Source: Alphaproteobacteria bacterium (GTDB lineage: Bacteria > Pseudomonadota > Alphaproteobacteria > UBA7985 > JAUIBT01). Taken from it: a DNA stretch of 64,000 nucleotides. Made by a program: the position numbers and the translations under genes. The stretch spans positions 18,378-82,377 of the forward strand of contig JAUIBT010000018.1 of assembly GCA_030428255.1 (NCBI GenBank). Reading direction: 5' to 3'. Under the pieces are notes generated by a model. The model had not been told where the DNA came from and made no database searches. It saw only the letters and a list, made by a program, of their open reading frames with translations. Of the stretch, positions 6,198 through 56,884 are shown piece after piece; position 1 is the stretch's first letter; every line of letters begins with the position of its first letter.

Positions 6198-6299
6198 TAT
6201 CTTTACGTTTGCATTCCGGCGTGCATGTTTGTAGCACCGTGTCAGCGACCCCCTCGGGTCGCTATACGAACATTGGAAAAAAACGAAAAAGGTAGAGAC

Positions 6300-7313: not shown

Positions 7314-7326
7314 GAGCGACATGCAA

Positions 7327-7355
7327 GGGGGGCAGGCTTTCGACCTGCCCCTTTT
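7327..7355 (+). terminator. intrinsic terminator after aapJ
   Basis: GGGGCAGG-ctttcga-CCTGCCCC followed by TTTT. Confidence 0.8.
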
Positions 7356-8951: not shown

Positions 8952-8953
8952 TC

Positions 8954-10924
8954 ATGGCGAATCAGGATCTCAACACCGAAAACACGGGCGCAAACTTCAA
9001 GCCAACTCCCGCGCGCGATGCGCCGTTGAATGAGATTGGCTGGGTCGCAACGATCAAGCGCAACTTGTTTGCGGGGCCAATTTCCTGGGTGGCAACACCG
9101 GTATTGGCGTTCATCATTGTCTCCGTACTCACCCATGTGCTGTCCTGGGGCTTCTTGAAAGCAACCAACCACGGCGCCTCAAACCGAACCTGTCACCTGG
9201 CCGAGCGGACAAGCTTGCTGGCGAAAGGTGATATTGCAAACTTGGTGGCTGGTAAGCTGCTGTTATCAAAGAGCTATCAGAGCCAGGACGAGCGCTTGTT
9301 CTGGGTCGACCGGCAAACGCATTGGAGCCGGTTTGCGGCGTCCACCCTTGGTTTCGGGGCCAGTTATGATGAGTTGATGACCGCCGATATATTGGCGGAT
9401 CGCGACGTCTCGCGTGCCCTGTCCCAGCGTGCTGACATTCTCAGCACTATTCAAAAGGACATCGACTTCATTGAGCGCAACGCGGACCCAGAAGCAGTTG
9501 TCCATCCTGGCCTGGCCAAAGCGGTCGAGGGGCTTGATCTCTTGGCAGGCGCTGCGGCACTGAAGGCGGCGGTTGCTGCAATGGATCCGGCGGCCTTCGA
9601 AGCTGCGCGCTCCAAATTCGACGCTATGATCCATTGGGGCGAGGCCCACAATGGTGCGTGCTGGACCGTGGTAAAGCGGCGCTGGCAGCAGTTCCTTTAT
9701 GGCTTCTATCCTGCGGATCAGGTCTGGCGGGTTGCTGTGACCGGTCTACTGTTGCTGATGGGTGGCTTGTCCTTGCTGTGGCCAGGACGCAGCCAGACCA
9801 GCCGCAGCGTAACCGCTGGCGCTGTAGCACTAGGCATGGGCTTTGCCATCCAATCCGGCGCGGCGCTGAGCGGTTTTGGATTGGTGCTCGCCTACATCAT
9901 ACCGCTCATTTTGGCTCTGCTGTACGAAAACCTGTCAACCGGCAGGCGGGGACTAATCTTCTTCTTGGGATTCCCCTTCGCCGCCACTTGGCTGCTGATC
10001 CGCTTCTCACTTCCGCAAGCCATTACCTTAGTATCGTCCCCGGCAGAGTGGATATTGGGTTTGCTTGTCTTGGCGATTTGGGGATTGGTCTTCTGGCAGA
10101 GCCTGAAGACGCAGTCAGCGTCTAAGACCTTCAAGCCTTTGACCAACGCGATCTATCTGATCTTGGGGGCCTTGACCTTCTATATCTTCTTGACCGTACG
10201 GGTCGAACCGTCGGGCGATGAGCTGTCGGCTCTACAAAATTTGTTGGGCTCTTTGCGCCTCAGCGACGTGGAGGTGGATAATATCTGGGGTGGCTTGCTG
10301 GCGACCGCCGTCACTGGTCTGACCGGCATCGCGGTGTCCTTGCCGCTGGGCGTCGTACTGGCGCTGGGCCGTCGGTCGGACTTGCCGATCGTTTCAACCT
10401 TCTCTACCGGCTTTATCGAGTTTGTGCGCGGTGTGCCCTTGATCACCATTCTGTTTATGGCGTCTGTGCTGTTGCCCCTGTTCTTGCCCGAAGGCGTGAC
10501 TATCAACAAGTTGCTGCGTGCTCTCGTGGGCGTGTCGCTGTTTGCATCAGCTTATATGGCGGAGGTCATTCGCGGCGGTTTGCAAGGCCTAAGCAAGGGC
10601 CAAACCGAAGGCGCAGACTCTTTGGGCCTCAGCTTCTGGCAAACCCAACGCTTCATCATCTTGCCTCAGGCGTTGAAAATCTCAATTCCTGGCATCGTGA
10701 ACACCTTTATTGGCCTGTATAAGGATACCACCCTGCTGTCGATCATCGGGATTTTTGACCTGCTGGGCGTCGGTTCGCGGTCGGTCTTGCCGTCGCTTGA
10801 ATGGGCGCGGCTTGAGGCTGAGGTTTACGCCTTTATCGCCTTGTTCTTCTTCCTATCATGTTTCTTCATGTCCCGTTACTCCCAGCACCTAGAGCGGCGC
10901 TTGGCGACCGGCCACGACCATTAA
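8954..10924 (+). CDS. aapM: general L-amino acid ABC transporter permease (AapM/BztC) with a large N-terminal insertion
   Basis: GACW...QFLYGFYP, WGGLLAT, LALGRRS, IEFVRGVPLITILF, AYMAEVIRGGLQ, FIGLYKDT. AGGAG before ATG 8954. Confidence 0.9.
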   Translation: MANQDLNTENTGANFKPTPARDAPLNEIGWVATIKRNLFAGPISWVATPVLAFIIVSVLTHVLSWGFLKATNHGASNRTCHLAERTSLLAKGDIANLVAGKLLLSKSYQSQDERLFWVDRQTHWSRFAASTLGFGASYDELMTADILADRDVSRALSQRADILSTIQKDIDFIERNADPEAVVHPGLAKAVEGLDLLAGAAALKAAVAAMDPAAFEAARSKFDAMIHWGEAHNGACWTVVKRRWQQFLYGFYPADQVWRVAVTGLLLLMGGLSLLWPGRSQTSRSVTAGAVALGMGFAIQSGAALSGFGLVLAYIIPLILALLYENLSTGRRGLIFFLGFPFAATWLLIRFSLPQAITLVSSPAEWILGLLVLAIWGLVFWQSLKTQSASKTFKPLTNAIYLILGALTFYIFLTVRVEPSGDELSALQNLLGSLRLSDVEVDNIWGGLLATAVTGLTGIAVSLPLGVVLALGRRSDLPIVSTFSTGFIEFVRGVPLITILFMASVLLPLFLPEGVTINKLLRALVGVSLFASAYMAEVIRGGLQGLSKGQTEGADSLGLSFWQTQRFIILPQALKISIPGIVNTFIGLYKDTTLLSIIGIFDLLGVGSRSVLPSLEWARLEAEVYAFIALFFFLSCFFMSRYSQHLERRLATGHDH

Positions 10925-42554: not shown

Positions 42555-43310
42555 ATGTCCAATGCCGCCTTTTTGATTATTGGCAATGAGATCTTGTCCG
42601 GTCGGACCAAGGACGCCAATTTGGGCTATCTTGCCGAACGTCTGACTGACTGGGGCGTGGGACTGCGTGAGGTGCGGGTCGTCGCCGATGACAGTGCAGC
42701 GATAATTGCCGCTGTGCAAGACCTGTCGCAGCGCTATGATTACCTGTTCACCTCAGGCGGCATCGGGCCAACCCACGACGACATCACTGCTGAGAATGTT
42801 GCCAAGGCGATGGGGACCGAGCTGCACTTGGATCCAAAGGCCCACGCTCTGCTGCAAGACCACTACCGCCGTTCAAGCCTTGAGCTGAATGAAGCCCGCT
42901 TGAAGATGGCTTATTTACCGATCGGGGCAAGCCATATCGACAACCCGGTTTCGACCGCGCCGGGCTTTCAGATCGCTAATGTCTTCGTCATGGCGGGCGT
43001 ACCCAGGATTTTTCAAGCCATGGTTGACAGCCTTAAGCCGCGCCTGCGGGGCGGCCCGCCGGTGCTGTCGCGCAGCCTGGTGACCCACAAAGGGGAGGGT
43101 GACATTGCTCAGGGATTGGGCGCCTTGCAAGCCGAGTTTCCGGACGTTGACATGGGCTCCTACCCCTTCATGCGCATGGGAAATTTTGGTGTCAATCTCG
43201 TGTTGCGCTCACCTGATAAGGCCCGCCTGGACGCTGCATTTGTAGCGGTTTGGAGCCTGGTTGAAGCCCTGGGCGATCAACCTGAGGAACTGAGCGCAGA
43301 GGGAGGCTAG
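42555..43310 (+). CDS. CinA-like molybdopterin-binding domain protein
   Basis: [38 protein letters not shown]. Confidence 0.9.
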
Positions 43311-44098
43311 TGTCAGTGCCAGCCCGGTTTTCCAACCCGCCTAAGGTGGCATTTCTGGCGAGTAGAGCGGACAATGCGCAAGACGCCCTGCAACGCTTGC
43401 AGGCGCGCTATCCGCACGTGGCGCCTTCAGAGGCAGATGTTTTCGTTGTACTGGGCGGCGACGGCTTTTTACTGGAAACGCTGCACGAGTTAAGCGGTGA
43501 TCGGCGGCCGATCTATGGCATGAACCAAGGTACGGTTGGGTTTTTGCTCAACACCTACCGGGAGGAGGCCTTGGTAGAGCGCTTGATGGGCGCGGTCCAC
43601 GTCAGTTTGCACCCACTGATCATGACCGCCGAGACCTACCAAGGCGGCCAGTTTACCGCCGAGGCGATCAACGAGGTCTCTTTGTTGCGCGAAACCCGCC
43701 AGGCGGCGCATCTCAAGATCTCGGTTGATGGTGTCGTGCGTATGCAGGAGCTAATTTGCGACGGTGTGATTTTGGCAACACCTGCAGGATCGACTGCCTA
43801 TAACCTCTCGGCGCACGGCCCGATTGTGCCTATGCGCGCGCGGCTGTTGGCTTTGACCCCGATCTCTGCCTTTCGCCCGCGTCGTTGGCGGGGCGCTCTG
43901 TTGCCAGACACGGTGGAAGTCAGCTTCGAAGTACTGCAGCCGGTCAAGCGCCCCGTGTCAGCCGTTGCCGACAGCACCGAGGTGCGCGACGTACGCAAGG
44001 TGACGGTACGCGCCGATTTTGACACCTCCTATACCCTGCTGTTTGACCCAGATCATCAACTTGAAGAACGGATTTTCCAAGAGCAGTTCGACTACTAG
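43310..44098 (+). CDS. nadK: NAD kinase
   Basis: [41 protein letters not shown] overlap with the upstream gene. Confidence 0.93.
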
Positions 44099-44387
44099 GA
44101 CCTCGGGTGCGGGCGAAATTTGAGCGCCGCCGTAACGGCCCTAGACGACGCTATCCAAATAAGAGATCTGGCGCGATAGCGGTCAGTATCCACTGCAATC
44201 GTATGGGAGTGTTGGCGGGCCAACCAGTGGAGCGGGGCGTTGGGCAGCAATGGGTCAAGCGGCGTGTGCAGCTGGCGCGCGCAACACCGCAGTGCGAGAC
44301 GCCTTTGCCAGCCTGTGATCAAGCGGCGATGCGCGCCTGTGTCTGCAAGCAGCGCGCAGCTAACATATTGAAATGTCGGAAGGAAGA

Positions 44388-44463
44388 TGGTGTGCCCTGC
44401 AGGATTCGAACCTGCGACCCACTGATTAAAAGTCAGTTGCTCTACCAACTGAGCTAAGGGCAC
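44388..44463 (-). tRNA. tRNA-Lys (anticodon UUU), CCA encoded
   Basis: Minus strand GTGCCCTTAGCTCAGTTGGTAGAGCAACTGACTTTTAATCAGTGGGTCGCAGGTTCGAATCCTGCAGGGCACACCA; perfect acceptor stem, TTCGAAT T-loop. Confidence 0.97.
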
Positions 44464-44580
44464 CCGGGAGCGGTTGGATACGCAATCCCACCGGGACGGT
44501 CAAGCGTATTTTGCATTTTCTTTCATTTTGTTTGCCCCTGACCCTAACAGGCAACAACTTGCTGCTAACGCGCGTCCTGA

Positions 44581-45492
44581 CTAGAGATAGCGCAGTGTCA
44601 AAACATCCACCCGTGGCGGGACGCCGATGCGCAGAGGCAGCAAGGCCATGCCGATGCCGCCGGTGACAAACACCTGGTAGCCGTTTACTTGGTGGTGTCC
44701 CATCAAGTATGGCAGGTCGCTTTGGTTGAACCAGCGTTCTAAGCCAAACAAGGACACCTGCCCGCCGCGGGTGTGCCCTGCCATAACCAGATCGATGCCG
44801 GTGTTGCGTGGCAAGGCGGTCACATGATCGGGCTGGTGCACCAGCAGCATGTGCAGGTCGCTGGCGCTGCTCTCCTGGTCAGGCCGCAAGCGCTGACCGC
44901 CATGATCCAAGTCCGGCAGGCCGGACAGCGCGATCGTGTCGCCTTGGTGATCGAAAGTCACAGTACGATTGTCGATCACCTGCGCGCCAAACCTTGAGGC
45001 CGCTTGCCTGATTTGCTCGACATAACTGGCGTCTTTCGGGTCATGATCGCTGTCACCTGTGACCAAATAAACCGGGGCCTCAAACCCACCTAACTCGCTG
45101 ATAAAGCGTCTGAGATCAATGGGATCAGCGCGATCGACCAAATCGCCCGCGATCACTACCAAATCGGGGCGCAGCTTATTGACCGCTCGGTGGATGCGCC
45201 AAAGCGGCATGGGTTGGCCAAAGACGCCATACCGCGTGTCAGAGAACAGCGCGACCTTGAGCTGCTTTGGATTGTCGGCCCGTGCTGCTAGCGCCGAAAG
45301 CGACAGGCTTGTCTCTTTGATCAGCAGACGTCGGGGCTCGATGAAGCTGGCATAGGTCAGCACCAAAATGATCAAAAAGCCCGGCAACCAGTACAATTTG
45401 ACCTGCCAGCGACGGGTGAAAATTTGCCAGGCAGCAATCATCAACAGCGGCGGCAGCAAATAGGTGAGCCAAGAGGCCAGGGAAGCGATCAT
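44581..45492 (-). CDS. membrane-anchored calcineurin-like metallophosphoesterase (YkuE type); start uncertain
   Basis: Two N-terminal TM helices; FSD, AGDLVD, TGDSDH (variant of GNHD), LVHQPD, AGHTRGGQ (variant of GHTHGGQ). Confidence 0.82.
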   Translation of the reverse strand: MIASLASWLTYLLPPLLMIAAWQIFTRRWQVKLYWLPGFLIILVLTYASFIEPRRLLIKETSLSLSALAARADNPKQLKVALFSDTRYGVFGQPMPLWRIHRAVNKLRPDLVVIAGDLVDRADPIDLRRFISELGGFEAPVYLVTGDSDHDPKDASYVEQIRQAASRFGAQVIDNRTVTFDHQGDTIALSGLPDLDHGGQRLRPDQESSASDLHMLLVHQPDHVTALPRNTGIDLVMAGHTRGGQVSLFGLERWFNQSDLPYLMGHHQVNGYQVFVTGGIGMALLPLRIGVPPRVDVLTLRYL

Positions 45493-45565
45493 AACAGCTT
45501 GCTTTCTCTCTCTAGGTTGGCTGTAAACTAGCGAGTCTTCTTTGCGAACAGTGGCACGAAAATCC

Positions 45566-46330
45566 ATGACCCTAAAGCCTTTGGTAGCCGTCCCATCCGA
45601 TCTCATCAATGTTGATGGTCACGAAAGCTATAAATGCGGCGACAAGTATCTGCGGGCGCTCTGCGACTGCGCTGATGTTGTACCGATCATCATACCCGCC
45701 CTTGAGCGGGGCATTGACATGAAGAGCCTGGTGGCGCGTGTCGATGCCGTGATGCTGTCCGGCGGCCTGTCGAACGTCCACCCCAGCGTCATGGCGGAAC
45801 CCCACCAAGGTCAGCAGGTGGTGGAGCCCAGCGATCTGCGGCGCGATTACATCACTCAGCCTTTGATTCATGAAACCTTGGCCCAAGGCAAACCCTTGTT
45901 GGGTATCTGCCGAGGCATTCAAGAGCTGAACGTCGCGCTTGGCGGCAGCCTGCATCCCTTGGTGCACGAGGCAGAAGGCCTTGATGACCACCGCGAGCCC
46001 AAGAGCGAAGATGTCGCCGTGCGCTATGGCCCGAACCACGAGGTCGTGCTTGAGCCTGACGGCCTGCTGGCGACATGGATCAGCGAGCCGCGCTTTATGA
46101 TCAACTCGCTGCATTGGCAGGCGGTGCGCGATTTGGGCCAGGGTCTGCAGGTTGAGGCGCGCGCGCCTGACGGGCTGGTCGAAGCTGTGTCCTTGCCTTC
46201 GGCGGCTAAGCCGGTGGTCGCCGTGCAATGGCACCCCGAATTCCAAGCGATCAACAACCCGCAATCGCGTCAGCTCTTTGCAGGCTTCCGGCGCGCTATT
46301 GATGGCGCTGATTTCTTAGCGGCTACTTGA
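45566..46330 (+). CDS. gamma-glutamyl-gamma-aminobutyrate hydrolase family (PuuD-like, peptidase C26)
   Basis: LSGG.SNVHP, D.RRD, LGICRGIQELNVALGGSL, INSLHWQ, VQWHPE. Confidence 0.9.
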   Translation: MTLKPLVAVPSDLINVDGHESYKCGDKYLRALCDCADVVPIIIPALERGIDMKSLVARVDAVMLSGGLSNVHPSVMAEPHQGQQVVEPSDLRRDYITQPLIHETLAQGKPLLGICRGIQELNVALGGSLHPLVHEAEGLDDHREPKSEDVAVRYGPNHEVVLEPDGLLATWISEPRFMINSLHWQAVRDLGQGLQVEARAPDGLVEAVSLPSAAKPVVAVQWHPEFQAINNPQSRQLFAGFRRAIDGADFLAAT

Positions 46331-46340
46331 AGGAGCAACC

Positions 46341-47402
46341 GTGACCCTCTGCCAAGACCGCATACTCTCTCTATTGCTTAAGCTGATGGCGATCGATTCC
46401 CCGACGGGCCGGTGCCAGGCCAAAGCCGATTGGGTGGTCGCCCATCTACGCGGCTTGGGGATTGCAAGCGAGGTGACACGACGCGGCGCGGTTAGGGCTG
46501 TTTTGCCTGCCACTGCCGCCAAGACCAGCGAGCCGCTGGCTCTGGCGGCGCACTTGGATACGCTGGGCGCAATGGTCACCGGCCACCATGCCAACGGCAG
46601 GGCGCGTTTGACGCCTCTAGGCGGCCTGTCGGCGCGGGTCGTCGAAGGCGCGCGGGTCCGCCTGGAACAGCGCGACGGACGCTTGATTGCAGGCACGGTG
46701 ATGCCGCTCAAGGCCTCTGGGCATCGCTTTGGGGCGGAGCTGGAGCAGCAGGCCGTGTCCTGGGACAATCTGGAGCTGCGGCTTGATCTCCTGGCCGATT
46801 GGCAGGCCGATAGCGCGGCGCTGAAAGCGGCGGCGAACATTGGCGACTATGTCTTTTTTGACCCAGAGCCTCAGTGCAGCGATGAAGGGCTGATCAAAGC
46901 GCGCTTTATCGACAATCAGGCCGGCACCGCGATCTTGCTCGCGCTGGCGGAGCTGCTGGTCGGCGACCCGGAGCCCCGAGGGCGCGATCTGCATTTGCTG
47001 TTCTCGGTGAGCGAAGAGGTCGGCAGCGGCGGCGCACACCTGCTCACGCCGGAGATCAGCGAACTGATTGCCGTGGATATTGCCGTTAATGCTCCAGATC
47101 AGGGCTCCAGCGCCATGGGTGTGACGTTGGTGCACAAGGACAAGGGCGGGCCCTATGATTTTGGCTTGACGCGCGCGCTGGCCGCTTTGGCCGAGGATGA
47201 GGCCCTGACCATGAGCGACGATGTGTTTAGGTTTTACTTTTCTGATACCCATCCTGCGACCCTGGCGGGCAACGACTGCCGCATGGCCTTGGTTTGCTAT
47301 GCTTGCGAGGCGACCCACGGTCACGAGCGCAGCCACCTGGCTTCGATCTTGGAGACCGGCAAGCTGCTGCTGGCGGCGGCCAAAGCCCCCCGCCTGGGCT
47401 AA
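46341..47402 (+). CDS. M42 family metallopeptidase (resembles the NAGGN-system-associated subfamily)
   Basis: AHLDTLGAMV, RLTPLGG, ARFIDNQAG, SEEVGSG, VDIAV, GPYDF.L, THGHERSH. Confidence 0.8.
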   Translation: MTLCQDRILSLLLKLMAIDSPTGRCQAKADWVVAHLRGLGIASEVTRRGAVRAVLPATAAKTSEPLALAAHLDTLGAMVTGHHANGRARLTPLGGLSARVVEGARVRLEQRDGRLIAGTVMPLKASGHRFGAELEQQAVSWDNLELRLDLLADWQADSAALKAAANIGDYVFFDPEPQCSDEGLIKARFIDNQAGTAILLALAELLVGDPEPRGRDLHLLFSVSEEVGSGGAHLLTPEISELIAVDIAVNAPDQGSSAMGVTLVHKDKGGPYDFGLTRALAALAEDEALTMSDDVFRFYFSDTHPATLAGNDCRMALVCYACEATHGHERSHLASILETGKLLLAAAKAPRLG

Positions 47403-49828
47403 CCCATGGCCTCGCCAATCAGGTCTTCGGCCAGTTCATCCAACATCATCTCCTCAGCCGAACCATAGACCTGCTCGCGGCCCAGTTCGAGCATGATGGG
47501 CACGGCAAGCGGGGAAACACGGTCCAAGCGTCGGTAGTCGATCTTGCCCGCAAAGCGGGTCAACATGGCCGACAAGCGGCGGATGTCGCACAGGCCACGC
47601 GCCGCCTCTGCACGGGTGGCGCGCAGCAGGACGTGATCGGGCTCATGGTCGCGCAGCACGTCATAAATTATGTCGGTGTTAAAGGTGACTTGGCGGCGCC
47701 CTTTGCGCTGGCCTGGGTATTGCCGCTCAATCAGGCCGCCAATGATGGCGCAGTTCTTGAAGGTGCGCTTCATTAAAGAGGTTTCTTGCATCCAGGCCTC
47801 TAGGTCATCGCCCAGCATGTCTTGATCAAACAGGCGCTCAACTTCGGGGTGCTGGTGCAGCGCCCAGGTCGCAATGGCGTAGTCTGTGCCGACAAAACCC
47901 AGCGCGCCGCAGCCTTCGCGATCTAAGCGCCGGGTTAGCAGCATGCCCAAGGTCTGGTGGGCGTTGCGACCCTCGAAGGTGTAGGCCACCAGGTACTCTT
48001 TGCCCGCGCGGGGAAAGGATTCGATCAACAGACGGTCCGCCGACGGCATGCCCGAGCGTGCCTGTTGGATCGTCAGCCACTCGCGCACCTCGTCAGGAAA
48101 GCTGCGCCATTGCGCGGGATGGCTCATCATGGTGCGCACGCGTTCGGCCAGTTGCGTGCTGATCGGCAGGCGCGCACCGCCGTAGACCGCCACCTTCGCC
48201 GAGCGGTCGGCTGCTGCGGCCCGCACCTTGACATCCGTCTGCTGGATTTCGATGAACTCCAGCACCTGTCCGCCGAACATGAAGGTGTCGCCCGCGGCCA
48301 ACTGCATGGCGAAGCTCTCTTCCAGCTCGCCGATGGTCTTGAAACCCTTCTTGACCTTCAACATAGGCGCTTCAACGATAACGCCAACATTGCTGCGATA
48401 GGCGCGCAAGTGGGCAGGGCTGGCGATGGTGTAGCGCCCGTCCGGCAGAGCCTTGAGCCGACGATAGCGCTCGTAGGCGCGCAGGGCGTAGCCACCGTGG
48501 GCGATAAAAGCCAAGGTATCGTCGAAATCCTTGCGGCTGAGGCTCTGAAACGGCGCTGCGTCCTGCACCTCGCGATAGAGATGGTCGGGGTGAAAGGCGC
48601 CCTGACAGGCCACAGCCCAGATGTGCTGCGCCAGCACGTCCAGCGTGCCGGGGTAGGGTGCTTCGCCGTCCAACTCGCCGGCGAGTATCGCGTCCTTAGC
48701 CGCCTGACACTCGATCAGCTCAAAGCGGTTGGCCGGAATAAGCACGGCGTGAGAGGCTTCGTCCAGGCGGTGGTTGGCCCGACCTATGCGCTGCACCAGC
48801 CGCGAGGCTCCTTTGGGTGCGCCCACCTGGATCACCAGGTCGATATCGCCCCAGTCGATACCCAGGTCCAGCGAGGAGGTGGCGACGACCGCGCGCAATT
48901 GGCCCGAAGCCATGGCCGCCTCAACCCGCAAGCGCTGCTCAAAGTCCAACGATCCGTGGTGCAGCGCAATGGGCAGGTTGGCGTCGTTCATTCGCCACAG
49001 CTCGTTGAAGATCAGCTCGGCCTGGGCGCGCGTGTTGACGAACACCAGCGCCAAGCGGGCCTTGAGGATATGCTCGTATACCTGAGCACTGGCGTAGAGG
49101 CCCATGCGCCCCGCCCAGGGCATGCCCTCCGGCGGGCAGACGATATCAATGCGCGGGGGCGTGCCGAGCGGGCCTTGGATGGTGATCAGCTCAGGATCAT
49201 CAATCTCGCCTTTGGGCGACAGCCAACCGCGGGCCCAGTCGGGGTCTGCCAGCGTTGCCGAGAGGCCCACGCGGCGATGGGCAGGCGCCAGGCTGTTGAG
49301 ACGGGTCAGCCCCAAAGACAGCAGATCGCCGCGCTTGGCCGTGTTGAGCACGTGCAACTCGTCAATGATGACACACTGAAGGCTTGCGAACATGGCGGGC
49401 GCGGTCGGGTAGGACAGCAGCAGGGCAAAGCTCTCTGGCGTGGTGAGCAGCAGGTTGGGCGGGGTCTTGCGCTGGCGCTCGCGTTCGCTCTGGCTGGTGT
49501 CACCGCTGCGCACGCCGACGCTGAGCCCCAGCCCCATGTCTGCGACGGGTGCGGCAAGATTGCGTTGGATGTCAGCGGCCAGGGCCTTGAGAGGCGAGAT
49601 GTAGAGCGTGTGCAGCCCTTCACGCGGCTGGCGCTGCAGGTCGATCAGGCTGGGCAGGAAGCCAGCCAGGGTCTTGCCCGCGCCCGTGGGCGCCATCAGC
49701 AAAGCGTGCTTGCTGTGCTGTCCAGCCTCGATCAGCGCAGCTTGGTGGGCGCGCAGCTGCCAGCCTCGTTTGGCGAACCAGCCTTGGAACACCTCTGGCA
49801 AGTGCGCGTCGCATGCCACCGTGTTCAC
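47399..49828 (-). CDS. lhr: Lhr-like DEXH-box helicase (ligase-associated DNA damage response type)
   Basis: APTGAGKTLAGFLP, YISPLKALA, TTPES, IIDELH, GLSAT, HHGSL, TSSLDLGID, QRIGRANH, GRNAHQTLG. Confidence 0.92.
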   Translation of the reverse strand: MNTVACDAHLPEVFQGWFAKRGWQLRAHQAALIEAGQHSKHALLMAPTGAGKTLAGFLPSLIDLQRQPREGLHTLYISPLKALAADIQRNLAAPVADMGLGLSVGVRSGDTSQSERERQRKTPPNLLLTTPESFALLLSYPTAPAMFASLQCVIIDELHVLNTAKRGDLLSLGLTRLNSLAPAHRRVGLSATLADPDWARGWLSPKGEIDDPELITIQGPLGTPPRIDIVCPPEGMPWAGRMGLYASAQVYEHILKARLALVFVNTRAQAELIFNELWRMNDANLPIALHHGSLDFEQRLRVEAAMASGQLRAVVATSSLDLGIDWGDIDLVIQVGAPKGASRLVQRIGRANHRLDEASHAVLIPANRFELIECQAAKDAILAGELDGEAPYPGTLDVLAQHIWAVACQGAFHPDHLYREVQDAAPFQSLSRKDFDDTLAFIAHGGYALRAYERYRRLKALPDGRYTIASPAHLRAYRSNVGVIVEAPMLKVKKGFKTIGELEESFAMQLAAGDTFMFGGQVLEFIEIQQTDVKVRAAAADRSAKVAVYGGARLPISTQLAERVRTMMSHPAQWRSFPDEVREWLTIQQARSGMPSADRLLIESFPRAGKEYLVAYTFEGRNAHQTLGMLLTRRLDREGCGALGFVGTDYAIATWALHQHPEVERLFDQDMLGDDLEAWMQETSLMKRTFKNCAIIGGLIERQYPGQRKGRRQVTFNTDIIYDVLRDHEPDHVLLRATRAEAARGLCDIRRLSAMLTRFAGKIDYRRLDRVSPLAVPIMLELGREQVYGSAEEMMLDELAEDLIGEAMG

Positions 49829-50289
49829 TGCTCGCCGGCAAGCGTGGCGGTGCGAACGGCGTCGCGATAGCGCTGAATCAGTCGGGCTTTGACGGCTGCT
49901 GAGGCCTCGGCTCCACTGCGATAGCGCTTTCCGCCAGGAAGCAGGGCTTGGGCTAGGCTCAGCGCCTCGCTCTTACTGAGCTTGGCGTCATCCAAAGCGG
50001 TGATCAGCGCTTGCAGGCCGCTTGCGAGCGCGGCGTCGCGGGCCTGGTTCAAGCGCTCGTGATCTTTCACAAAGCCAGCAACCCTCGGGCTGGGGACCGG
50101 ATCGCCGATCGGACTTGCGCCAGTGGACTTTGCCGCCGTGTGCGCTTTGGGCTTGGTGGTCTGTCCAGGCTTGGATGATAGGCTAGCTAGGTGGTCGGCC
50201 AACAGGGCGCGTTCCTCGGGACTCAGAGCTGGCGGCTCTGATGCCGTCACGAGGCGGTGCAAGAGGCGACGCAGCGCGGGGCTAGCCAT
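49825..50289 (-). CDS. hypothetical protein coupled between the ParA-like gene and lhr
   Basis: ATG overlaps the parA-like stop by 8 nt; stop overlaps the lhr GTG (GTGA); helical N- and C-terminal blocks joined by a Pro/Ser/Lys linker. Confidence 0.75.
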   Translation of the reverse strand: MASPALRRLLHRLVTASEPPALSPEERALLADHLASLSSKPGQTTKPKAHTAAKSTGASPIGDPVPSPRVAGFVKDHERLNQARDAALASGLQALITALDDAKLSKSEALSLAQALLPGGKRYRSGAEASAAVKARLIQRYRDAVRTATLAGEQ

Positions 50290-51460
50290 GGTCCGCCGGT
50301 GCCGTGGAGCGCGCGGCATAGAATTGGTCCAGCTGCTCGACGATCGCGTCGCCAAGGCGGTCCATCAGCTCGCGGGTGGACTTGTCCTTGAGGTAGGCGA
50401 AATCGGAGCCCGAGGCCGCTGCAACGGCTGATTTTTGGGGAATTTCCGCACCTTCGAACAGATGCACGGGCCCACGCCACTGGGGCGGCAGATCCATGGC
50501 CATATCCGCCCAGATGCCGCGCTCGTTGGCGGTCAGGGAGACCGAGTTGTCTACCATGGTGCCGATCACGCCCAAAATCTCCAGCTTGGGAAATAGCAGA
50601 GGCCGCATTTCGCGCAGTTGGCGAATGAAGGTGGTCACGGCTTGGCTGGACATGCGATCCAGCTTGGTGGGGATCAAGACGTGGGTCGAGCAAGTCAGGG
50701 CGTTGATAACGCCGGTGGTCAAACGCGGCGGGCAATCTAAGATGATTAAATCATATGAGGCCTGCACGACGGGATGCAGCAGATAGCGTGCCATGACAAA
50801 GCGCGCATCCATAGAGGTATCGCCCAGCAGCCAAGACAGCATGACCTGACTTTCGACCGTCGCGAAGTCATAGAAGGAGGGCAAGATTGCTGAGTGGGGC
50901 AGGGCCGGTGCCAAGGACTGAGCTGCATAGGGCAGCCACTGGGGCTCCTTGTCACCCTTAATCAAATGGTGGGTCAGGGTCTCTTCAGCGATGAAGTTGC
51001 CGCTGGCATTCAACGCCAAGGCCGACAGCGAGCCCTGATAGTCCAAATCCACCAGCAAGACGCGCTTGTTCCATTTGGCGTCCAGATAGGCCGCCAAGTT
51101 GGCGCAGAGCGTGGTCTTGCCAACGCCGCCTTTCAGGTTGGCCATGGTGATGATTGGGATAGAATCAGCGAGCTTGGGCGCGATGTTGGGCGCCTCAGTG
51201 CTTTCATAGCGCAGCCAGATCTCTTTATCCTGGCTGCTCATAGCACTGCGTAAGCGACCCAGCCGCGCCATCAGGTCGTCTTTTTCGGCCATGTGGCGTT
51301 GCTCGGACTGCTCGGCCTGATTGATGCGTGCTTGGGCCTTACGCCGCCGCGCCGGGGCCAGCAAAATCGCATCCCACAGCGCACCGATCACCGCACCGAT
51401 GGCCAAAACCACCAACAGCAGCAGAAAAACGCCGATTGGATTGGACAGGAAAAAGCCCAT
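50282..51460 (-). CDS. ParA/MinD-family ATPase with N-terminal transmembrane helix and coiled coil
   Basis: Hydrophobic residues ~9-34; ANLKGGVGKTT (deviant Walker A), LLVDLDYQGSLS, DLIILDCPP, LIPTKLD. Confidence 0.88.
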   Translation of the reverse strand: MGFFLSNPIGVFLLLLVVLAIGAVIGALWDAILLAPARRRKAQARINQAEQSEQRHMAEKDDLMARLGRLRSAMSSQDKEIWLRYESTEAPNIAPKLADSIPIITMANLKGGVGKTTLCANLAAYLDAKWNKRVLLVDLDYQGSLSALALNASGNFIAEETLTHHLIKGDKEPQWLPYAAQSLAPALPHSAILPSFYDFATVESQVMLSWLLGDTSMDARFVMARYLLHPVVQASYDLIILDCPPRLTTGVINALTCSTHVLIPTKLDRMSSQAVTTFIRQLREMRPLLFPKLEILGVIGTMVDNSVSLTANERGIWADMAMDLPPQWRGPVHLFEGAEIPQKSAVAAASGSDFAYLKDKSTRELMDRLGDAIVEQLDQFYAARSTAPADHG

Positions 51461-51553
51461 AGTGCGCTAACCGAAGCCCCCCTTAAAGCCTTTTGTGCGC
51501 GAGCCTGGTCGGTTGTCCGTCGCCGTCCCCACCAAGCCCCGCTCAATTTCAGC

Positions 51554-51901
51554 TTATTCGGACGCCGCCGGGCGCTTATAAGCAATGGCTTTGTCTTCGA
51601 GCATGCCAAAGAATTCGCCGCTTTCAAACATCTCTTTGACGATATCAAAGCCGCCGATGAATTCGCCCTTGACGTAAAGCTGGGGAATGGTCGGCCAGTT
51701 AGAATAGTCCTTGATGCCCTGACGCAGCTCGTCGCTCTCCAGCACGTTGACATCCTGAGCTTCGATTTGCAGGAACTGCAAAAGCTGGGCGACGCCAGAA
51801 GAAAAGCCGCACTGCGGGAAATTCATGGTTCCCTTCATAAAGAGCACCACGTCATTGCTCTGAACGATGGAATCAATTTGAGCCTTGGTTTGCTCTGTCA
51901 C
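51554..51901 (-). CDS. grxD: monothiol glutaredoxin (Grx4)
   Basis: VLFMKGT..FPQCGFS, WPTIPQLYVKGEFIGG. Confidence 0.95.
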   Translation of the reverse strand: MTEQTKAQIDSIVQSNDVVLFMKGTMNFPQCGFSSGVAQLLQFLQIEAQDVNVLESDELRQGIKDYSNWPTIPQLYVKGEFIGGFDIVKEMFESGEFFGMLEDKAIAYKRPAASE

Positions 51902-52030
51902 GTCTGGTCACTCCATTGGTTGGCCGCGCAAGGGCCTCTATGTCCTTAGACCAAGGCATGTAGGCGTTTTGGCAGCAAAGCTCAAGTCTTGGCGCAGCAC
52001 CTGGGAGTAAGCCGTTCGGCAGACTTTCGC

Positions 52031-52591
52031 TTAGTCGGAGGAGGCTGGTTCGCCAGACGACTCAGACTCGATCTTGGGTGCGGGTTTAGGGTCGCGGCAA
52101 CGCGGGCTGATTTCGGCCACCGGATGGCACAGGATATCCCCGATTTGGATGCCGCGCGCTTCGGCCTGCCCGGCATTGATCTCCAGAACGTATTTGGCGG
52201 GCAAGATCGAGGGTATGGGGGTTTCGCTTAAGGTCGGTGTATTGGCAGCAATGTTTACGATCTCACCCTTGGCGTCGATATAGATTATATCGAGCGGAAT
52301 GTAGGTGTTTTTCATCCAGAAGTGGCGCGGCGCCTCATTGGGGAAGTAGAAAATCATGCCTGCATCGTTGGGCATGGTCCGGCGGAACATCAGCCCGCGT
52401 TGGCGGCGTGGACCGGTGTTGGCGACCTCCACAGTAAACCAATGACTTTCAGCCGCGGTTTTGACAAAGACGACATCGCGGTCAAATGTGACCTCGGGTA
52501 GATTCGGTTGCTCGTCGTTGGATTGGGCGAGGGCTGCCAGAGCCAGAAGGCCTGAAATCAAGGTGATGGCAAAAAGATAGGCGATACGCAT
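52031..52591 (-). CDS. DUF192 family protein
   Basis: Signal peptide; VEVA...R.RGLMFR, GMIF, FWMKNT.IPLDII, YVLEINAG. Confidence 0.9.
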   Translation of the reverse strand: MRIAYLFAITLISGLLALAALAQSNDEQPNLPEVTFDRDVVFVKTAAESHWFTVEVANTGPRRQRGLMFRRTMPNDAGMIFYFPNEAPRHFWMKNTYIPLDIIYIDAKGEIVNIAANTPTLSETPIPSILPAKYVLEINAGQAEARGIQIGDILCHPVAEISPRCRDPKPAPKIESESSGEPASSD

Positions 52592-52698
52592 GGCAGGTGG
52601 GACGTCCCGATTAGTGGCAGTGCTCGCAACCTAGGCAGGTAAAGCGTCATAAAAATGATTGACACGAAGAACGCTTATAAAACATTGTCCAATTTTCG

Positions 52699-52808
52699 AC
52701 GCAGGGGAGCGGTTTTCGCCGCTGAGATGGGACGAATAGCAGAACGAAGGTGCTGCATGTCTCCCGACCCTTTGGACCTGATCCGGATCATGCCGGCGGA
52801 GGGAGCGT
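52699..52808 (+). promoter_or_regulatory. TPP (THI-box) riboswitch
   Basis: P1 ACGC/GCGT, AGGGG/CCCTT, CTGAGA, ACCTGATCCGGATCATGCCGGCGGAGGGA; lies directly upstream of a ThiY-type ABC operon. Confidence 0.95.
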
Positions 52809-52811
52809 AAG

Positions 52812-53657
52812 GTGAAGTTCGAGTCGCTTTTAAAAGCGCGCAAGTCAAAGGCTCAAAAGCCAGCCGCGCCGCCCAGCTTACCCGGGGCAGCGATAGCGCG
52901 CCTGCGTTCCAGTGGTTCTGGGCGCAGCTATCCCGCCAGTTTGTTTGCTGCTTTCGATTTGACCGTGCGTGCGGGCCAATGTTTGGTTCTGCTGGGGCCT
53001 TCAGGTGTGGGCAAATCGAGCTTGCTCAAGCTGCTGACTGGTGAGCTGGCTTCAGAATCAAGCCTAAGCTTGACGTGGAGCCAAGGCCGGCCCAAAGCCC
53101 TGGCCTACATGGCACAAAGCGATGTCCTGCTGCCCTGGCGCCACGTGCTGGGCAATGTCAGCTTGGGTGCTTTGGTGCGCGGCAAACGACAAGAACCCGA
53201 ACGGGCTGCGGCGTGCTTGGAGCAAGTCGGCTTGGAACCGCGCTGGCATCGTGCCTACCCAAACCAACTGTCAGGCGGTATGCGGCAACGCGTGGCCCTG
53301 GCACGTTGTATGTACGAACAGGCCGATTTGATCTTGATGGATGAACCGCTGTCAGCCGTGGATGCAGCGCTGCGCCTTGAGTTGCAGGGCCTTCTTGCAA
53401 CCCGCCTGGCGCATAAAACCCGCGTACTGGTGACACATGATCCCTTTGAGGCCGCTCGCTTGGGGCATGTGATTGTGGTCTTGGGCGGATCGCCTGCTGG
53501 CGTGTGTCTACAAATCAACGATGAACGCCGTGGCGCACGGGCCTTCGATGATCCAATCGTGCGCAGCAACGCCGAGCGCCTTACGCGCTGTCTCCTCGAA
53601 CAACCGTGGGGCCGCCGCGCCGGCGCCCCTCACAGAGACCAGGAGGTGGCGCAATGA
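52812..53657 (+). CDS. ABC transporter ATP-binding protein (thiamine precursor uptake, ThiZ-like)
   Basis: GPSGVGKS, LSGGMRQRVALAR, ILMDEP, VTHD; downstream of the TPP riboswitch. Confidence 0.88.
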   Translation: MKFESLLKARKSKAQKPAAPPSLPGAAIARLRSSGSGRSYPASLFAAFDLTVRAGQCLVLLGPSGVGKSSLLKLLTGELASESSLSLTWSQGRPKALAYMAQSDVLLPWRHVLGNVSLGALVRGKRQEPERAAACLEQVGLEPRWHRAYPNQLSGGMRQRVALARCMYEQADLILMDEPLSAVDAALRLELQGLLATRLAHKTRVLVTHDPFEAARLGHVIVVLGGSPAGVCLQINDERRGARAFDDPIVRSNAERLTRCLLEQPWGRRAGAPHRDQEVAQ

Positions 53658-54385
53658 GGCCGCTCATCGTGTTTGCAGGGCTCTTGTTGGCTTGGGCGGT
53701 GTTCGTGCGCGTGGCGTCGGTGCCCGCATTCATGTTGCCAAGCCCCGAGCAGGCTTTGTTCGAGATGGTTTCGCGCCCGCTGTTTTATGCCCGCCACGCT
53801 GGCGTCACAGCGGCCGAGATTTTGGCCGGTGCTGGCCTTGGGTTGCTTGCTGGGCTGGTGTTCGGATTGCTGCTGGTGCGATTTCCAGCACTCGAGCCCT
53901 GGTTCTGGCCGCTGCTTGTGGCCTCACAAGCGATCCCGGTTTTCGCCATTGGGCCGCTGCTCACCTTGTGGATTGGCTACAATATGATGATGCGCGTGAC
54001 TATGGCGGCGTTGATCATCTTTTTCCCCGTCGCAGTGGCCGCCCGCCAGAGCCTCAAACGCCGCCATCCAGAGATCGAGGCGCTGATGTTGAGCATGGGT
54101 GCCAGGCCCTGGCGCGCCTTTGTTTTTGTGCGTCTGCCTTTGGCCTTTGAGGTCTTTGCACCAGGCCTGTTAGTGGCGGCCGCAACAGCGCCCATTGGCG
54201 CGGTTGTTGGCGAGTGGATCGGCTCTAGTGCGGGCCTGGGGCACGTCATGCTCGACGCCAACGCCAAGGTTCAAACCGACACCATGATCGCGGCGTTGTT
54301 TGTGCTCTGTCTGCTTGCCTATTCGTTTTACGCCCTGGTGGCCGCCTTCGTGCTCCGTCTGGGCTGGTGGTTCGCTGCGTCATGA
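53654..54385 (+). CDS. ABC transporter permease (ThiX-like, NitT/TauT class)
   Basis: LPSP, SQAIPVFAIGPLL..W.G, FFP, GAVVGEW; ATGA overlap. Confidence 0.88.
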   Translation: MRPLIVFAGLLLAWAVFVRVASVPAFMLPSPEQALFEMVSRPLFYARHAGVTAAEILAGAGLGLLAGLVFGLLLVRFPALEPWFWPLLVASQAIPVFAIGPLLTLWIGYNMMMRVTMAALIIFFPVAVAARQSLKRRHPEIEALMLSMGARPWRAFVFVRLPLAFEVFAPGLLVAAATAPIGAVVGEWIGSSAGLGHVMLDANAKVQTDTMIAALFVLCLLAYSFYALVAAFVLRLGWWFAAS

Positions 54386-54432
54386 CGCCTGCGCTCCCCA
54401 TGTTTCCATCGCATTATAACAAAGGACACTCT

Positions 54433-55365
54433 ATGCGATATTTGTCTCTTCTGGCTTTGGCAGCCGGTCTTATGGTCAGTCTGCCAGCAGCCTCGGCCGA
54501 GCGCTTTACGGTGCTGCTAGACTGGTTCATCAACCCTGATCATGGCGCCTTGGTCGTCGCCAAGCAGCGGGGCTACTTCGATGAAGTCGGCCTTGATGTG
54601 GCTCTGGTCGAGCCAGCCGATCCCAACGCGCCGCCAAAGCTGCTGGCGGCCGGGCAGGGCGATGTTGCCATCTCCTACCAACCGCAACTCTACCTGCTGC
54701 GCGAAGCGGATCTTCCCGTGCGGGCCGTTGGTGTGTTGGTTGGCCAGCCGCTGAACTCCTTGGTGACACTGGAGAGCGGCCCCATTCAGTCCATCGCAGA
54801 CTTGAAGGGCAAGAAAGTGGGCTACTCGGTTGGCGGATTTGAGACCGCTGTGCTGGGCCAAATGCTGGAGGGCGTCGGTCTGACGATGGATGATGTTGAG
54901 CTGATCAATATCAATTTTGCGCTGACACCGGCCTTGTTGAGCAAGCAGGTCTCAGCCGTGATCGGCGCTTTCCGAAATTTCGAACTCAACCAACTGAGCT
55001 TGAACGACGCGCGCGGACGGGCCTTCTTGCCCGAAGATCACGGTGTTCCGGCCTACGACGAGCTGATCGTTCTGGCCCAAGAAGAGCGGGTGAATGACCC
55101 TAAGGTGCAGGCCTTCCTCATGGCTGTTGAGCGCGCGGCGCGCGACATCGCGGACGATCCCGATGGGACTTGGGAAGACTTTATCCAAGAGAAGGATGGA
55201 CTTGACGATGCGCTGAATGCTTTGGCATGGCGCGATACGGCGCCCTTGTTGGCCAGCAGCATCGCTTTGGACAAAGCCCGCTATCAGGCCTTCGCCGACT
55301 TCATGGTCCAGCGTGGTTTGATCGAAAAGGCCAAGCCGGTTTCAGCCTACATCGCGGCGGACTGA
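54433..55365 (+). CDS. thiY: NMT1/THI5-like substrate-binding protein (ThiY; hydroxymethylpyrimidine/aminopyrimidine)
   Basis: LDWFINPDH, ISYQPQL, KKVGYS, NINFAL, GAFRNFE, YDEL. Confidence 0.88.
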   Translation: MRYLSLLALAAGLMVSLPAASAERFTVLLDWFINPDHGALVVAKQRGYFDEVGLDVALVEPADPNAPPKLLAAGQGDVAISYQPQLYLLREADLPVRAVGVLVGQPLNSLVTLESGPIQSIADLKGKKVGYSVGGFETAVLGQMLEGVGLTMDDVELININFALTPALLSKQVSAVIGAFRNFELNQLSLNDARGRAFLPEDHGVPAYDELIVLAQEERVNDPKVQAFLMAVERAARDIADDPDGTWEDFIQEKDGLDDALNALAWRDTAPLLASSIALDKARYQAFADFMVQRGLIEKAKPVSAYIAAD

Positions 55366-55426
55366 AGCCAGGCGGCATCATGTGCCAACGTTTGAGTCTA
55401 AGGATCCGCCGTTGGCGGGCCTCACG

Positions 55427-55457
55427 CGGCTTGGGGGGCACGGCTTGGGGGGCACGG
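55427..55457. repeat. 14-bp direct tandem duplication between convergent genes
   Basis: CGGCTTGGGGGGCA x2 plus CGG. Confidence 0.8.
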
Positions 55458-55468
55458 ATGGCGCTGCG

Positions 55469-56380
55469 CTAACGCGTGGGGCGTTTGAAGTAAAGGGTGA
55501 CTTGCGGCAAGTCGGCCGCCAATCGCCTTAGCCCTTGCCAGTGATCGTTGGTCATGGCTGAGGAAATGGCCGATAGGGTGAGCGGAATGAGCGTGCCGGG
55601 TGCAGGTCTGTGCCCGGCATTTTCTATGATCGCCAAGGCTGAGTTACGCCGCGCCAACTGGAAAGTGCGCAACCCGTGGTCGATCGGAACAATCTTGTCC
55701 TTGCGGCCATGAACGATCACCACCGGCAGGTGCAGCCGCGATAGCTTGGCGAGATTATCGAAATCATCTTGGATAAAGGGCCGCGCCCAGGCGGGAGCCG
55801 CTTGTTCAACCCGCGTAAATGGCGAGACCAGGACCATGGCCTTGATGGTGGTGTTCAGGCCAACTCGGGGCGGCAAAGCAGCCTCTTGAAAGGCCATGTC
55901 GATCGCCATTGCGGTGCCCAATGAGTGAGCGAACAGGACAATGCCCGCAGGGTGATTGCGGGCTGACAATTGCCGCGACGCGTCTAAAATTCCCCGGGCA
56001 TCCAGCAAAAGGTTTTTGGCGGTGGGTACGCCAGGGTTGGGGCCGTAGCCACGATAGTCCGGGATAAAGACCGGATATCCAGCCTCTATCAGATCGCGCA
56101 GATATAGAGCGGCTACGCCCATATGCCCAGTGCTGCCGTGCAAATGGGTAATCAGCGGAAAATCGGGGCGCGCGCCTGGCCAGTACCACCCCAGCAACGA
56201 CAAGCCGTCGGGAGTCCGATAGCGCACAGAGTAAGCCGGTACATTGCTCCACTCAGACGCCAAAATCGGGGCGTTTTCAGGCGTGAAGATGAATTGACGA
56301 GCGGTTTTTCCGCAGCCGACCAAAACAAGTGATAGGCTCAGAACCGCGAGCAGCGCGGCAACGCGAGACAGAAATGACAT
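55469..56380 (-). CDS. alpha/beta hydrolase, probable lipoprotein
   Basis: Lipobox LVGC, HLHG, DYRGYG, AHSLG nucleophile, VHGRKD, AGH. Confidence 0.82.
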   Translation of the reverse strand: MSFLSRVAALLAVLSLSLVLVGCGKTARQFIFTPENAPILASEWSNVPAYSVRYRTPDGLSLLGWYWPGARPDFPLITHLHGSTGHMGVAALYLRDLIEAGYPVFIPDYRGYGPNPGVPTAKNLLLDARGILDASRQLSARNHPAGIVLFAHSLGTAMAIDMAFQEAALPPRVGLNTTIKAMVLVSPFTRVEQAAPAWARPFIQDDFDNLAKLSRLHLPVVIVHGRKDKIVPIDHGLRTFQLARRNSALAIIENAGHRPAPGTLIPLTLSAISSAMTNDHWQGLRRLAADLPQVTLYFKRPTR

Positions 56381-56554
56381 AAAGCAAAATAGATAAATCA
56401 ACTTAAAGTAGAAGTATCAGGTTGTTGACCGCTTGTCACGCCCAAAACACATCACCGGCAAATCCTTGTTCGTGCAATCTCTGGGCCTGCGCCTTGAAAT
56501 CCACCAAGTCATGGCTAACATGCTAGGTCTTCCTACTCTTGCTGGATTAAAAGC

Positions 56555-56884
56555 ATGCAGATCGTATCGGTGACCCCGGCCGCTAAAGACCATATCGCCC
56601 TGCTGATGGAGGGTGCCCCTGCGGACACGCAAGGTTTGAAGGTGTCGATTAAGCAGGGGGGCTGTTCAGGCTATGAATACGATATCGCCTACGCCGCGAA
56701 AGGCGACAAGTTTGGCGAAGTGGTGGACCTGGGCGAACACAAGCTGTTTATCGATCCTGGCGCGATCATGTTTTTACTCGGCGCAACCATCGATTACCAG
56801 GTTGAACGGTTTGCGTCTGGATTCCGATTCATCAACCCCAATGAAAAAGCACGCTGTGGTTGTGGTGAGAGCATCACCTTTTAG
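56555..56884 (+). CDS. HesB/IscA/SufA iron-sulfur cluster A-type carrier
   Basis: GGCSGYEY, F.F.NPN, CGCGES. Confidence 0.93.
   Translation: MQIVSVTPAAKDHIALLMEGAPADTQGLKVSIKQGGCSGYEYDIAYAAKGDKFGEVVDLGEHKLFIDPGAIMFLLGATIDYQVERFASGFRFINPNEKARCGCGESITF

Follow-up and report, generated by a model that had tools for sequence, protein, structure and literature searches.

ATPases of the ParA/MinD type are driven by ATP into a head-to-head sandwich dimer held through a signature lysine, and in MinD and ParA this transition gates attachment to membrane or nucleoid. To our knowledge, every ParA/MinD positioning system studied so far uses a soluble ATPase whose binding to a nucleoid or membrane matrix is reversible and controlled by ATP. 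Here we describe a two-gene locus on a 64,000-nucleotide stretch of DNA (hereafter the window; positions 18,378 to 82,377 of contig JAUIBT010000018.1) from the alphaproteobacterial genome assembly GCA_030428255.1. The first gene encodes a ParA-like ATPase with an N-terminal transmembrane (TM) helix, and the second encodes a small partner protein. A search of 8.4 million papers and preprints returned no account in which a ParA-family ATPase is anchored by an integral transmembrane segment, and a 2022 review of the family mentions transmembrane segments for TipN only (PMC9178275).

The ATPase gene begins with ATG and encodes a product of 392 amino acids (coordinates of all features are collected in Table 1). 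Residues 9-31 (IGVFLLLLVVLAIGAVIGALWDA) contain the sole hydrophobic 19-mer of the protein with a Kyte-Doolittle mean of at least 1.6, the observed mean being 2.96. The ParA-type core is complete from about residue 101 and is matched by Pfam AAA_31 (6.9e-30, residues 103-295) as well as by CbiA. In an alignment of 47 homologues, K110, G111, G112, V113, G114 and K115 of the deviant Walker A motif are all invariant, as are D138, D140, Q142 and G143 of Walker A' and D242 and P245 of Walker B. The signature-lysine Walker A, the DxD motif, the Walker B motif and the fold place the protein in the ParA/MinD (SIMIBI, deviant Walker A) superfamily. Within the same 47 sequences the family is further marked by W82, Y141, E203, R246 and P264; W82, E203, R246 and P264 are invariant, Y141 is conserved in at least 90%, and in the Planctomycetota subclade the tryptophan stands in the form 'G+VWE+P'. 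The family typically reads DYQGS where Soj reads DPQGN, and DxPPR where Soj reads DxPPS.

An AlphaFold2 model of the ATPase (47 homologues) was of high confidence, with a predicted local distance difference test score (pLDDT) of 92.3 and a predicted template-modelling score of 0.85. In this model, residues 8-75 form a single unbroken helix, followed by short helices at 78-83 and 90-98 and then by the ParA alpha/beta fold. The top PDB matches by Foldseek were the Soj/ParA structures 9A6N, 8RAY, 6IUB and 2BEK (target-normalised template-modelling score 0.83-0.88, probability 1.00), with the McdA structures (6NON/6NOP) ranking after them, and sequence searches of the PDB agreed that Soj/ParA is closest. 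Among the listed homologues the distance from the end of the TM segment to Walker A ranges from 56 to 151 residues, the longest stalks being found in Planctomycetota. The TM segments of the family are rich in Gly, Ala and Ser (median 32%). A crude test for a 3.5-residue hydrophobic periodicity in the stalk gave z=0.24 for the window protein, a non-significant value, and a family median of 1.2, with 29% of members above 2.

Judged by comparison with its homologues, the N-terminal TM extension of the ATPase is real. Relative to the 86%-identical homologue at locus L001, codons 1-35 differ at 24 positions, of which 18 are synonymous and 6 change the amino acid. This ratio resembles that of the ATPase core, indicating that the N-terminal region is under purifying selection at the protein level. 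Among the 120 best homologues, 96 have at least 60 residues ahead of Walker A and, within them, a hydrophobic 19-mer (mean of at least 1.5); this arrangement is shared by the Planctomycetota members, in which a far longer charged helix separates the TM segment from the head. In these 96 proteins the 15-residue flanks of the TM segment hold on average 0.7 Lys plus Arg before it and 3.5 after it, and 89 of the 96 are richer after. Such a positive-inside bias fits a reverse signal anchor, with stalk and ATPase in the cytoplasm, and is opposite to the charge pattern of signal peptides that are cleaved. Positions 51325-51480 are spanned by two contigs from marine metatranscriptomes, which derive from a related strain (~97% identity), take in the 5' end of the open reading frame (ORF), and give weak support; an identical stretch was assembled from runs of at least two studies. 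If the start had instead been mis-called, translation would begin at the internal Met57 or Met64 and the hydrophobic segment would be an untranslated leader. The Shine-Dalgarno-like AAGGGGGG does sit rather far from the ATG, 16 nt 5' of it. However, the selection acting on the first 35 codons, the retention of the TM segment and its Lys/Arg residues down to ~30% identity in two phyla, and the confident, continuous helix that AlphaFold2 gives through the N-terminal region leave this explanation with almost no credence.

An initial annotation of the window, made by reading the sequence, had already pointed to a strongly hydrophobic N-terminal helix, a basic RRRK and an intact KGGVGKTT/DLDYQG/DCPP core, and the ORF, the Kyte-Doolittle profile, Pfam and the 47-homologue alignment all bear this out. 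It had also named, as possible grounds for rejecting a membrane anchor, a true start downstream of the helix and homologues that lack it; the codon comparison argues against the former, and the helix is conserved in the homologues. Its description of the stalk as a coiled coil was not confirmed, the region being a long helix in the AlphaFold2 model with the low periodicity value given above.

The second gene of the locus belongs to a family that is the obligate companion of this type of ATPase. Profile hidden Markov models (HMMs) of both families were run on 86 loci. ATPase scores fell into two groups, at least 174 bits for family members and at most 125 bits for generic ParAs; the window ATPase scored 469.7 bits against its purpose-built model, and the partner 71.7 bits against its own (E=2.9e-21). 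A partner gene lay directly downstream on the same strand at 24 of 27 family loci by HMM, compared with 0 of 60 generic ParA loci, and the partner at one further family locus (L024) was recovered by BLAST clustering. The reverse look-up agreed, as all three partner proteins from which it was made had a ParA-like gene of 441-463 amino acids immediately upstream. In the contexts first examined, an ORF of 145-165 amino acids with no Pfam match always followed the ATPase gene, often overlapping it, and the other neighbours varied. No other neighbour recurred in an all-against-all comparison of flanking ORFs and a Pfam scan of 91 neighbour genes from 26 loci, the set to which the neighbour counts below refer. 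The ATPase is therefore not an orphan and forms, with its conserved obligate partner, a two-gene module. There is no ParB-like gene near the ATPase, the nearest neighbours being a glutaredoxin, a DUF192 protein, an ORF with no Pfam match and an Lhr-type helicase, and minC and minE are not among the neighbours. A search for parS yielded one match with three mismatches, at 62348, where 1.3 would be expected by chance, and no iterated repeats or iterons were found near the module.

The ATG of the partner gene overlaps the stop codon of the ATPase gene (ATGGCTAG), and start/stop overlaps of the two genes also occur at L001, L004 and L007. The partner is strongly basic (isoelectric point 10.2; family median 9.5). 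Its AlphaFold2 model (62-sequence alignment, pLDDT 86.6) begins with a helical hairpin (4-15, 24-38); residues 39-66 form a disordered linker rich in Lys, Pro and Ala, and a C-domain of four helices occupies residues 68-150. The consensus of the N-terminal helix, 'MKxxELR', contains a conserved Lys2 and Arg7. In forms of ~225 amino acids the N-domain (~55 amino acids) is duplicated in tandem. A separate N-domain-like ORF of 61-63 amino acids lies between ATPase and partner at L005 (9380-9565) and on the contig that carries partner P0284 (63 amino acids). This pattern of fusion and fission suggests that the partner domains act together. A partner profile built from seven proteins and searched against 1.84 billion representatives at 50% identity matched 707 clusters at E<=1e-3 and 76 at <=1e-10. 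No significant match to the partner was found in Pfam (including a newer precomputed release), NCBIfam, PHROG, the PDB by sequence profile, or the PDB by Foldseek. The source databases name partner proteins 'hypothetical protein'. Several partners of ~221 amino acids (P0289, P0300, P0322 and others) carry the Joint Genome Institute (JGI) label 'exo-beta-1,3-glucanase (GH17 family)', which has no domain evidence behind it and looks like a mis-annotation.

When the ATPase cores of all loci were placed in a maximum-likelihood tree (quick IQ-TREE search), the family formed one clade (26 rows; Shimodaira-Hasegawa-like approximate likelihood ratio test support 98), spanning Alphaproteobacteria and Planctomycetota, apart from 64 generic ParAs and divided into Planctomycetota and Pseudomonadota subclades. 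That the subclades follow the phyla suggests vertical descent and, as far as sequences can tell, vertical maintenance of the module. The taxonomic range is a sample, drawn from the matches listed in the genome scan. Among these, the named carriers are a Rhodospirillaceae metagenome-assembled genome (MAG; L008), Hyphomonadaceae, Hyphomicrobiales, Hyphomicrobium, Xanthobacteraceae, Hydrogenophilaceae, Planctomycetaceae, Gemmataceae, Gemmata and Limnoglobus. The Rhodospirillaceae MAG (93% identity) is probably close to the organism of the window. At the single locus from an Actinomycetota MAG (L026), the partner is present and the ATPase is split across two ORFs. At L017 (618-1610) and L015 (4122-5231) the open frame of the ATPase appears to include no N-terminal TM segment, which may be due to a frameshift or assembly error or may mark a genuinely soluble variant. 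Cultured carriers are Hyphomicrobium sp. D-2 (WP_280388375.1), H. sulfonivorans (WP_173952595.1) and a Hyphomonas sp. (WP_409894603.1), whose ATPases bear no more specific name than 'ParA family protein' or 'AAA family ATPase'; with such strains at hand, the function of the module is directly testable. Paralogous modules can share a genome, as L009 and L013 come from the same MAG (JAIELK01) and L014 has two modules side by side. The L014 pair (5782-9465) is convergent, with one partner of ~154 amino acids and one longer, and since its two ATPases fall in different subclades the duplication must be old.

Two mobile origins were considered and rejected. A plasmid partition system is not indicated, as the best tblastn match among 72,556 plasmids reached 33% identity over the core and ~96 bits, compared with at least 190 bits within the family. 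Nor is a phage-borne origin, since PHROG assigned the ATPase to a generic 'ParA-like' family and had no match to the partner, and the 80 best matches among IMG/VR viral contigs included no family members and consisted of generic ParAs whose cores are ~30% identical.

The initial annotation had proposed a membrane-tethered, atypical ParA-family ATPase that positions an unknown cargo. The tether is well supported, as the TM segment is real and conserved with Lys and Arg after the helix, and the remarks that neither parB nor parS accompanies the gene also held, the annotated neighbours not being ParB-like and the lone parS match being at chance level. Profile searches and phylogeny, which it had suggested, set the protein in a clade separate from generic ParAs, and no characterised membrane-anchored family claims it, with NCBIfam scores below cut-off and the literature search without a match. 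What the annotation under-weighted was the product of the following gene, which it mentioned as a component for an ATPase assay and which neighbourhood analysis revealed as the conserved partner.

By analogy with described systems, we consider it rather probable that the locus is a self-contained module in which a membrane-fixed ATP switch of the ParA/MinD type works with its own activator or adaptor. The ATPase would have a short N-terminus outside, a single TM helix, and a rigid stalk that holds a Soj/ParA-type head in the cytoplasm, with the length of the stalk setting a distance between head and membrane that differs by lineage. The partner, translationally coupled to the ATPase gene and composed of one or two N-domains, a linker and a conserved C-domain, would be produced alongside it. 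Upon ATP binding, the heads would form a sandwich dimer through the signature lysine. Because the ATPase would be permanently in the membrane, its ATP cycle would have to gate, instead of membrane attachment, the binding of the partner and any partner-borne load at the inner membrane face. The partner may then act like ParB, MinE or McdB, both as an adaptor and as an activator that triggers hydrolysis. The architecture and its conservation, the topology signal, the intact catalytic motifs, the pairing of the two genes and the separate clade are computed results, whereas ATP-dependent dimerisation, activation and a positioning or tethering role are inferred from this likeness.

Several observations weigh against such a module or limit it. 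The partner is cast as an activator by analogy, from gene order, coupling, basic charge and Lys2/Arg7 of 'MKxxELR'. Loci L010 and L023 have no partner by HMM or BLAST clustering. A few members are apparently without the TM segment: just 51 residues precede Walker A in L017, L015 seems truncated and L019 begins at a contig edge, so that frameshifts or contig ends are possible. Finally, the position of the module depends on lineage and paralogues coexist, which is also compatible with accessory functions.

If a membrane-fixed switch is the right description, the family may amount to a new class of ParA/MinD ATPase, stalked and integral, which would use the membrane as a fixed matrix and whose ATP-gated dimer would capture the basic adaptor and, by way of it, either the chromosome or an assembly in the cytoplasm, at a fixed distance below the membrane; we offer this broader proposal tentatively and think it rather improbable. 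Among the matches listed, family members occur chiefly in Hyphomicrobiales, Hyphomonadaceae and Planctomycetota. These lineages are noted for budding or polar growth, and the module might therefore help to move or anchor contents in cells whose mode of division is not simple binary fission. A widespread clade that is permanently inserted cannot work by reversible binding to a matrix, and one that keeps all catalytic and dimerisation residues and a co-evolving partner would represent an unexplored mode of action in the superfamily. The partner, for its part, is a sizeable family (the 707 clusters above) that has no model in any library searched.

Other functions could be envisaged for an ATPase and a basic partner of this kind. 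The module might tether the nucleoid to the membrane or organise the chromosome, with the partner binding DNA and the membrane-bound ATPase capturing and releasing it under the control of ATP, an inversion of ParABS logic in which the membrane would be the matrix and DNA the cargo. The basic charge of the partner and its Lys/Pro/Ala-rich disordered linker would suit such a role, and one partner member gave a weak SAP-domain match (E=0.004), but this match was sub-threshold, confined to one of seven members and not reproduced, and neither Foldseek nor the PDB profile search detected a DNA-binding fold in the partner. Genes for DNA transactions lie near some modules (the Lhr helicase here and at L001 and L008, Ku/MutY/DciA/SMC at L003, RuvCAB at L005). 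We considered a DNA-repair theme of the neighbourhood on this account and rejected it, as it was present at 3 of the first 7 loci and vanished over the 91 neighbours of the 26-locus scan. With no centromere-like repeats nearby either, a DNA tether seems unlikely. An envelope function appears still less probable. Here the ATPase would be a regulator or scaffold comparable to BcsQ, FlhG, TadZ or the bacterial tyrosine kinases (BY-kinases), docked by its TM segment on a membrane complex encoded elsewhere. Many ParA/MinD relatives do act in this way, the Gly/Ala/Ser-rich TM segment is compatible with helix-helix packing, and 'BcsQ' is a frequent JGI name for family members. That name is an automatic label, however, and the models for BcsQ (TIGR03371, 40.4 bits, cut-off 157.85), MinD (TIGR01968, 34.9 bits, cut-off 212.9) and Wzc (NF008568, 20 bits, cut-off 1068), and likewise the BY-kinase model TIGR01007 (20.9 bits, cut-off 108), all remained far under their cut-offs. 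Moreover, polysaccharide, flagellar or pilus genes do not recur among the neighbours, no bcs genes are found there, and the ATPase has neither a periplasmic domain nor a C-terminal Tyr cluster (its C-terminus is ...FYAARSTAPADHG).

A compact cassette of two genes with a variable position and paralogues in the same genome (L009/L013; L014) also calls to mind a conflict module, either anti-phage defence or a toxin-antitoxin-like pair, in which the TM segment would be a membrane-disrupting effector freed by the ATPase switch. PADLOC did match its PDC-M28B model weakly (5.6e-7), and a PIN/PhdYeFM pair and an Mrr gene occur near two loci. Nevertheless, the PDC-M28B match is limited to the Walker A region (residues 92-140), and the defence-model matches among the neighbours were to generic helicase only, from two Lhr genes, with one transposase found and no enrichment of defence genes. 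The module has the GC content of its flanks, no member was found on the 72,556 plasmids or in the 80 best viral-contig matches, and the subclades track the phyla, suggesting vertical descent. We therefore regard a conflict function as very unlikely. A defence system as such was rejected as unsupported, since PADLOC on three genes and the neighbours gave matches at the level of Walker A and of generic helicase only.

The flanks of the ATPase and partner genes are of a housekeeping nature, comprising NAD kinase, tRNA-Lys, a metallophosphatase, C26 and M42 peptidases, the helicase, glutaredoxin, DUF192 and an ABC transporter (Table 1 gives those discussed here). The annotated GTG start of the Lhr-type helicase overlaps the TGA stop of the partner gene, but TIGR04121 aligns only from residue 13 of the helicase, which leaves both its true start and the overlap in doubt. 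PdeM is usually linked to the ligase-associated helicase; genes for PdeM, an ATP-dependent ligase or an exonuclease are not among the annotated neighbours (43310-47402 and 51554-56884). A functional unit of module and helicase was considered and rejected, as, besides the window, only L001 and L008, the two closest relatives, have the helicase next to the module, and no other neighbour family recurs; its adjacency is thus lineage-specific and the helicase lies outside the conserved module. Two further annotations in this region deserve comment. A 122-amino-acid 'ORF' at 44095-44463 is partly a spurious translation of the tRNA-Lys(TTT) gene, and the calcineurin-like metallophosphoesterase has an N-terminus that looks hydrophobic by eye and is not obviously PdeM.

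Table 1. Positions of the ATPase, its partner and neighbouring genes discussed in the text, in window coordinates.
Feature	Coordinates	Strand	Basis or remark
Membrane-anchored ParA-like ATPase gene	50282..51460	(-)	ORF; Pfam AAA_31/CbiA; AlphaFold2; Foldseek
Transmembrane helix, residues 9-31, predicted N-out/C-in reverse signal anchor	51368..51436	(-)	Kyte-Doolittle; Lys/Arg bias; codon comparison with L001
Charged helical stalk, residues 32-75, with the basic stop-transfer RRRK at residues 38-41	51236..51367	(-)	AlphaFold2
Junction of stalk and ATPase head, including family-invariant Trp82 (51215-51217)	51161..51235	(-)	Alignment of 47 sequences
Deviant Walker A KGGVGKTT, residues 110-117, signature Lys110	51110..51133	(-)	Alignment
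Walker A' / switch I DLDYQG, residues 138-143	51032..51049	(-)	Alignment
Walker B DCPP (residues 242-245) and family-invariant Arg246	50723..50737	(-)	Alignment
Partner gene, 154 amino acids, basic, all-helical two-domain protein	49825..50289	(-)	Sequence; partner HMM; AlphaFold2
Ligase-associated DEXH (Lhr-like) helicase	47399-49828	(-)	TIGR04121, 1056 bits; directly downstream of partner
Calcineurin-like metallophosphoesterase, 342 amino acids	44581-45609	(-)	
tRNA-Lys(TTT) gene	44388-44463	(-)	

Finally, we compared the module with the known systems that it resembles. None of the NCBIfam equivalogs reaches its cut-off for the ATPase; besides the models named above, ParA_partition (NF041546) scored 76.6 bits against a cut-off of 180, RepA (TIGR03453) 68.2 against 348 and SopA (NF010259) 45.3 against 725. 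Closest in both sequence and structure of the head are the Soj/ParA proteins of ParABS (Thermus thermophilus Soj 1WCV/2BEK, Helicobacter pylori Soj 6IUB, ParA 8RAY), which share its deviant Walker A with the signature lysine as well as its Walker A' and Walker B motifs, and whose genes also stand immediately upstream of one for a small partner. However, the window ATPase differs in its integral N-terminal TM helix and stalk and in the lack of ParB and parS. In Bacillus subtilis Soj, R189 is the arginine needed for ATP-dependent, non-specific DNA binding. In the column aligned with this arginine through T. thermophilus Soj, the window protein has Ser and the family varies (S in 11 of the 47 sequences, a gap in 10, Q in 6, others in the remainder), which, for the one contact residue mapped, argues against the nucleoid as the matrix.

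Type Ia plasmid ParAs (P1 ParA, SopA, RepA) are similar in size (~390-400 amino acids) and also have an N-terminal extension of ~100 residues that opens with a long helix. Residues 96-285 of the ATPase are covered by the RepA and SopA models, and Foldseek aligns 330 columns with P1 ParA (3EZ2). In the plasmid proteins, though, the extension is a dimerisation helix with a helix-turn-helix domain, whereas in the window protein it is a TM helix with a stalk. McdA-McdB, PomXYZ and ParC-ParP share with the module the pairing of a ParA gene with that of a small adaptor, and the adaptors are also basic, partly disordered and poorly conserved; their ATPases are soluble, in contrast, and the matrix that these use is the nucleoid or a polar landmark. 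Genes for carboxysomes, chemotaxis or division do not accompany the module among the neighbours.

With MinD-MinE and FlhG the module has in common an ATPase of ParA/MinD fold at the cytoplasmic membrane and a small partner that, in those systems, controls the ATPase. MinD, however, attaches reversibly, and solely in its ATP-dimer form, by a C-terminal amphipathic helix; in the window ATPase the sole hydrophobic segment is N-terminal, no MinD-type C-terminal targeting helix is present, and attachment through the TM helix would be permanent. BY-kinases (Wzc/Etk; CpsC-CpsD) are P-loop ATPases of the same superfamily that are likewise attached to the membrane by N-terminal TM segments, but they have two of these around a large periplasmic domain, together with the C-terminal Tyr cluster, whereas the window ATPase has one TM segment and ~8 residues outside. 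In place of these features, the window module combines a TM helix followed by Lys/Arg, a stalk, an invariant Trp, the DYQGS and DxPPR motifs and a downstream partner gene, the set of characters by which we propose to recognize the family.

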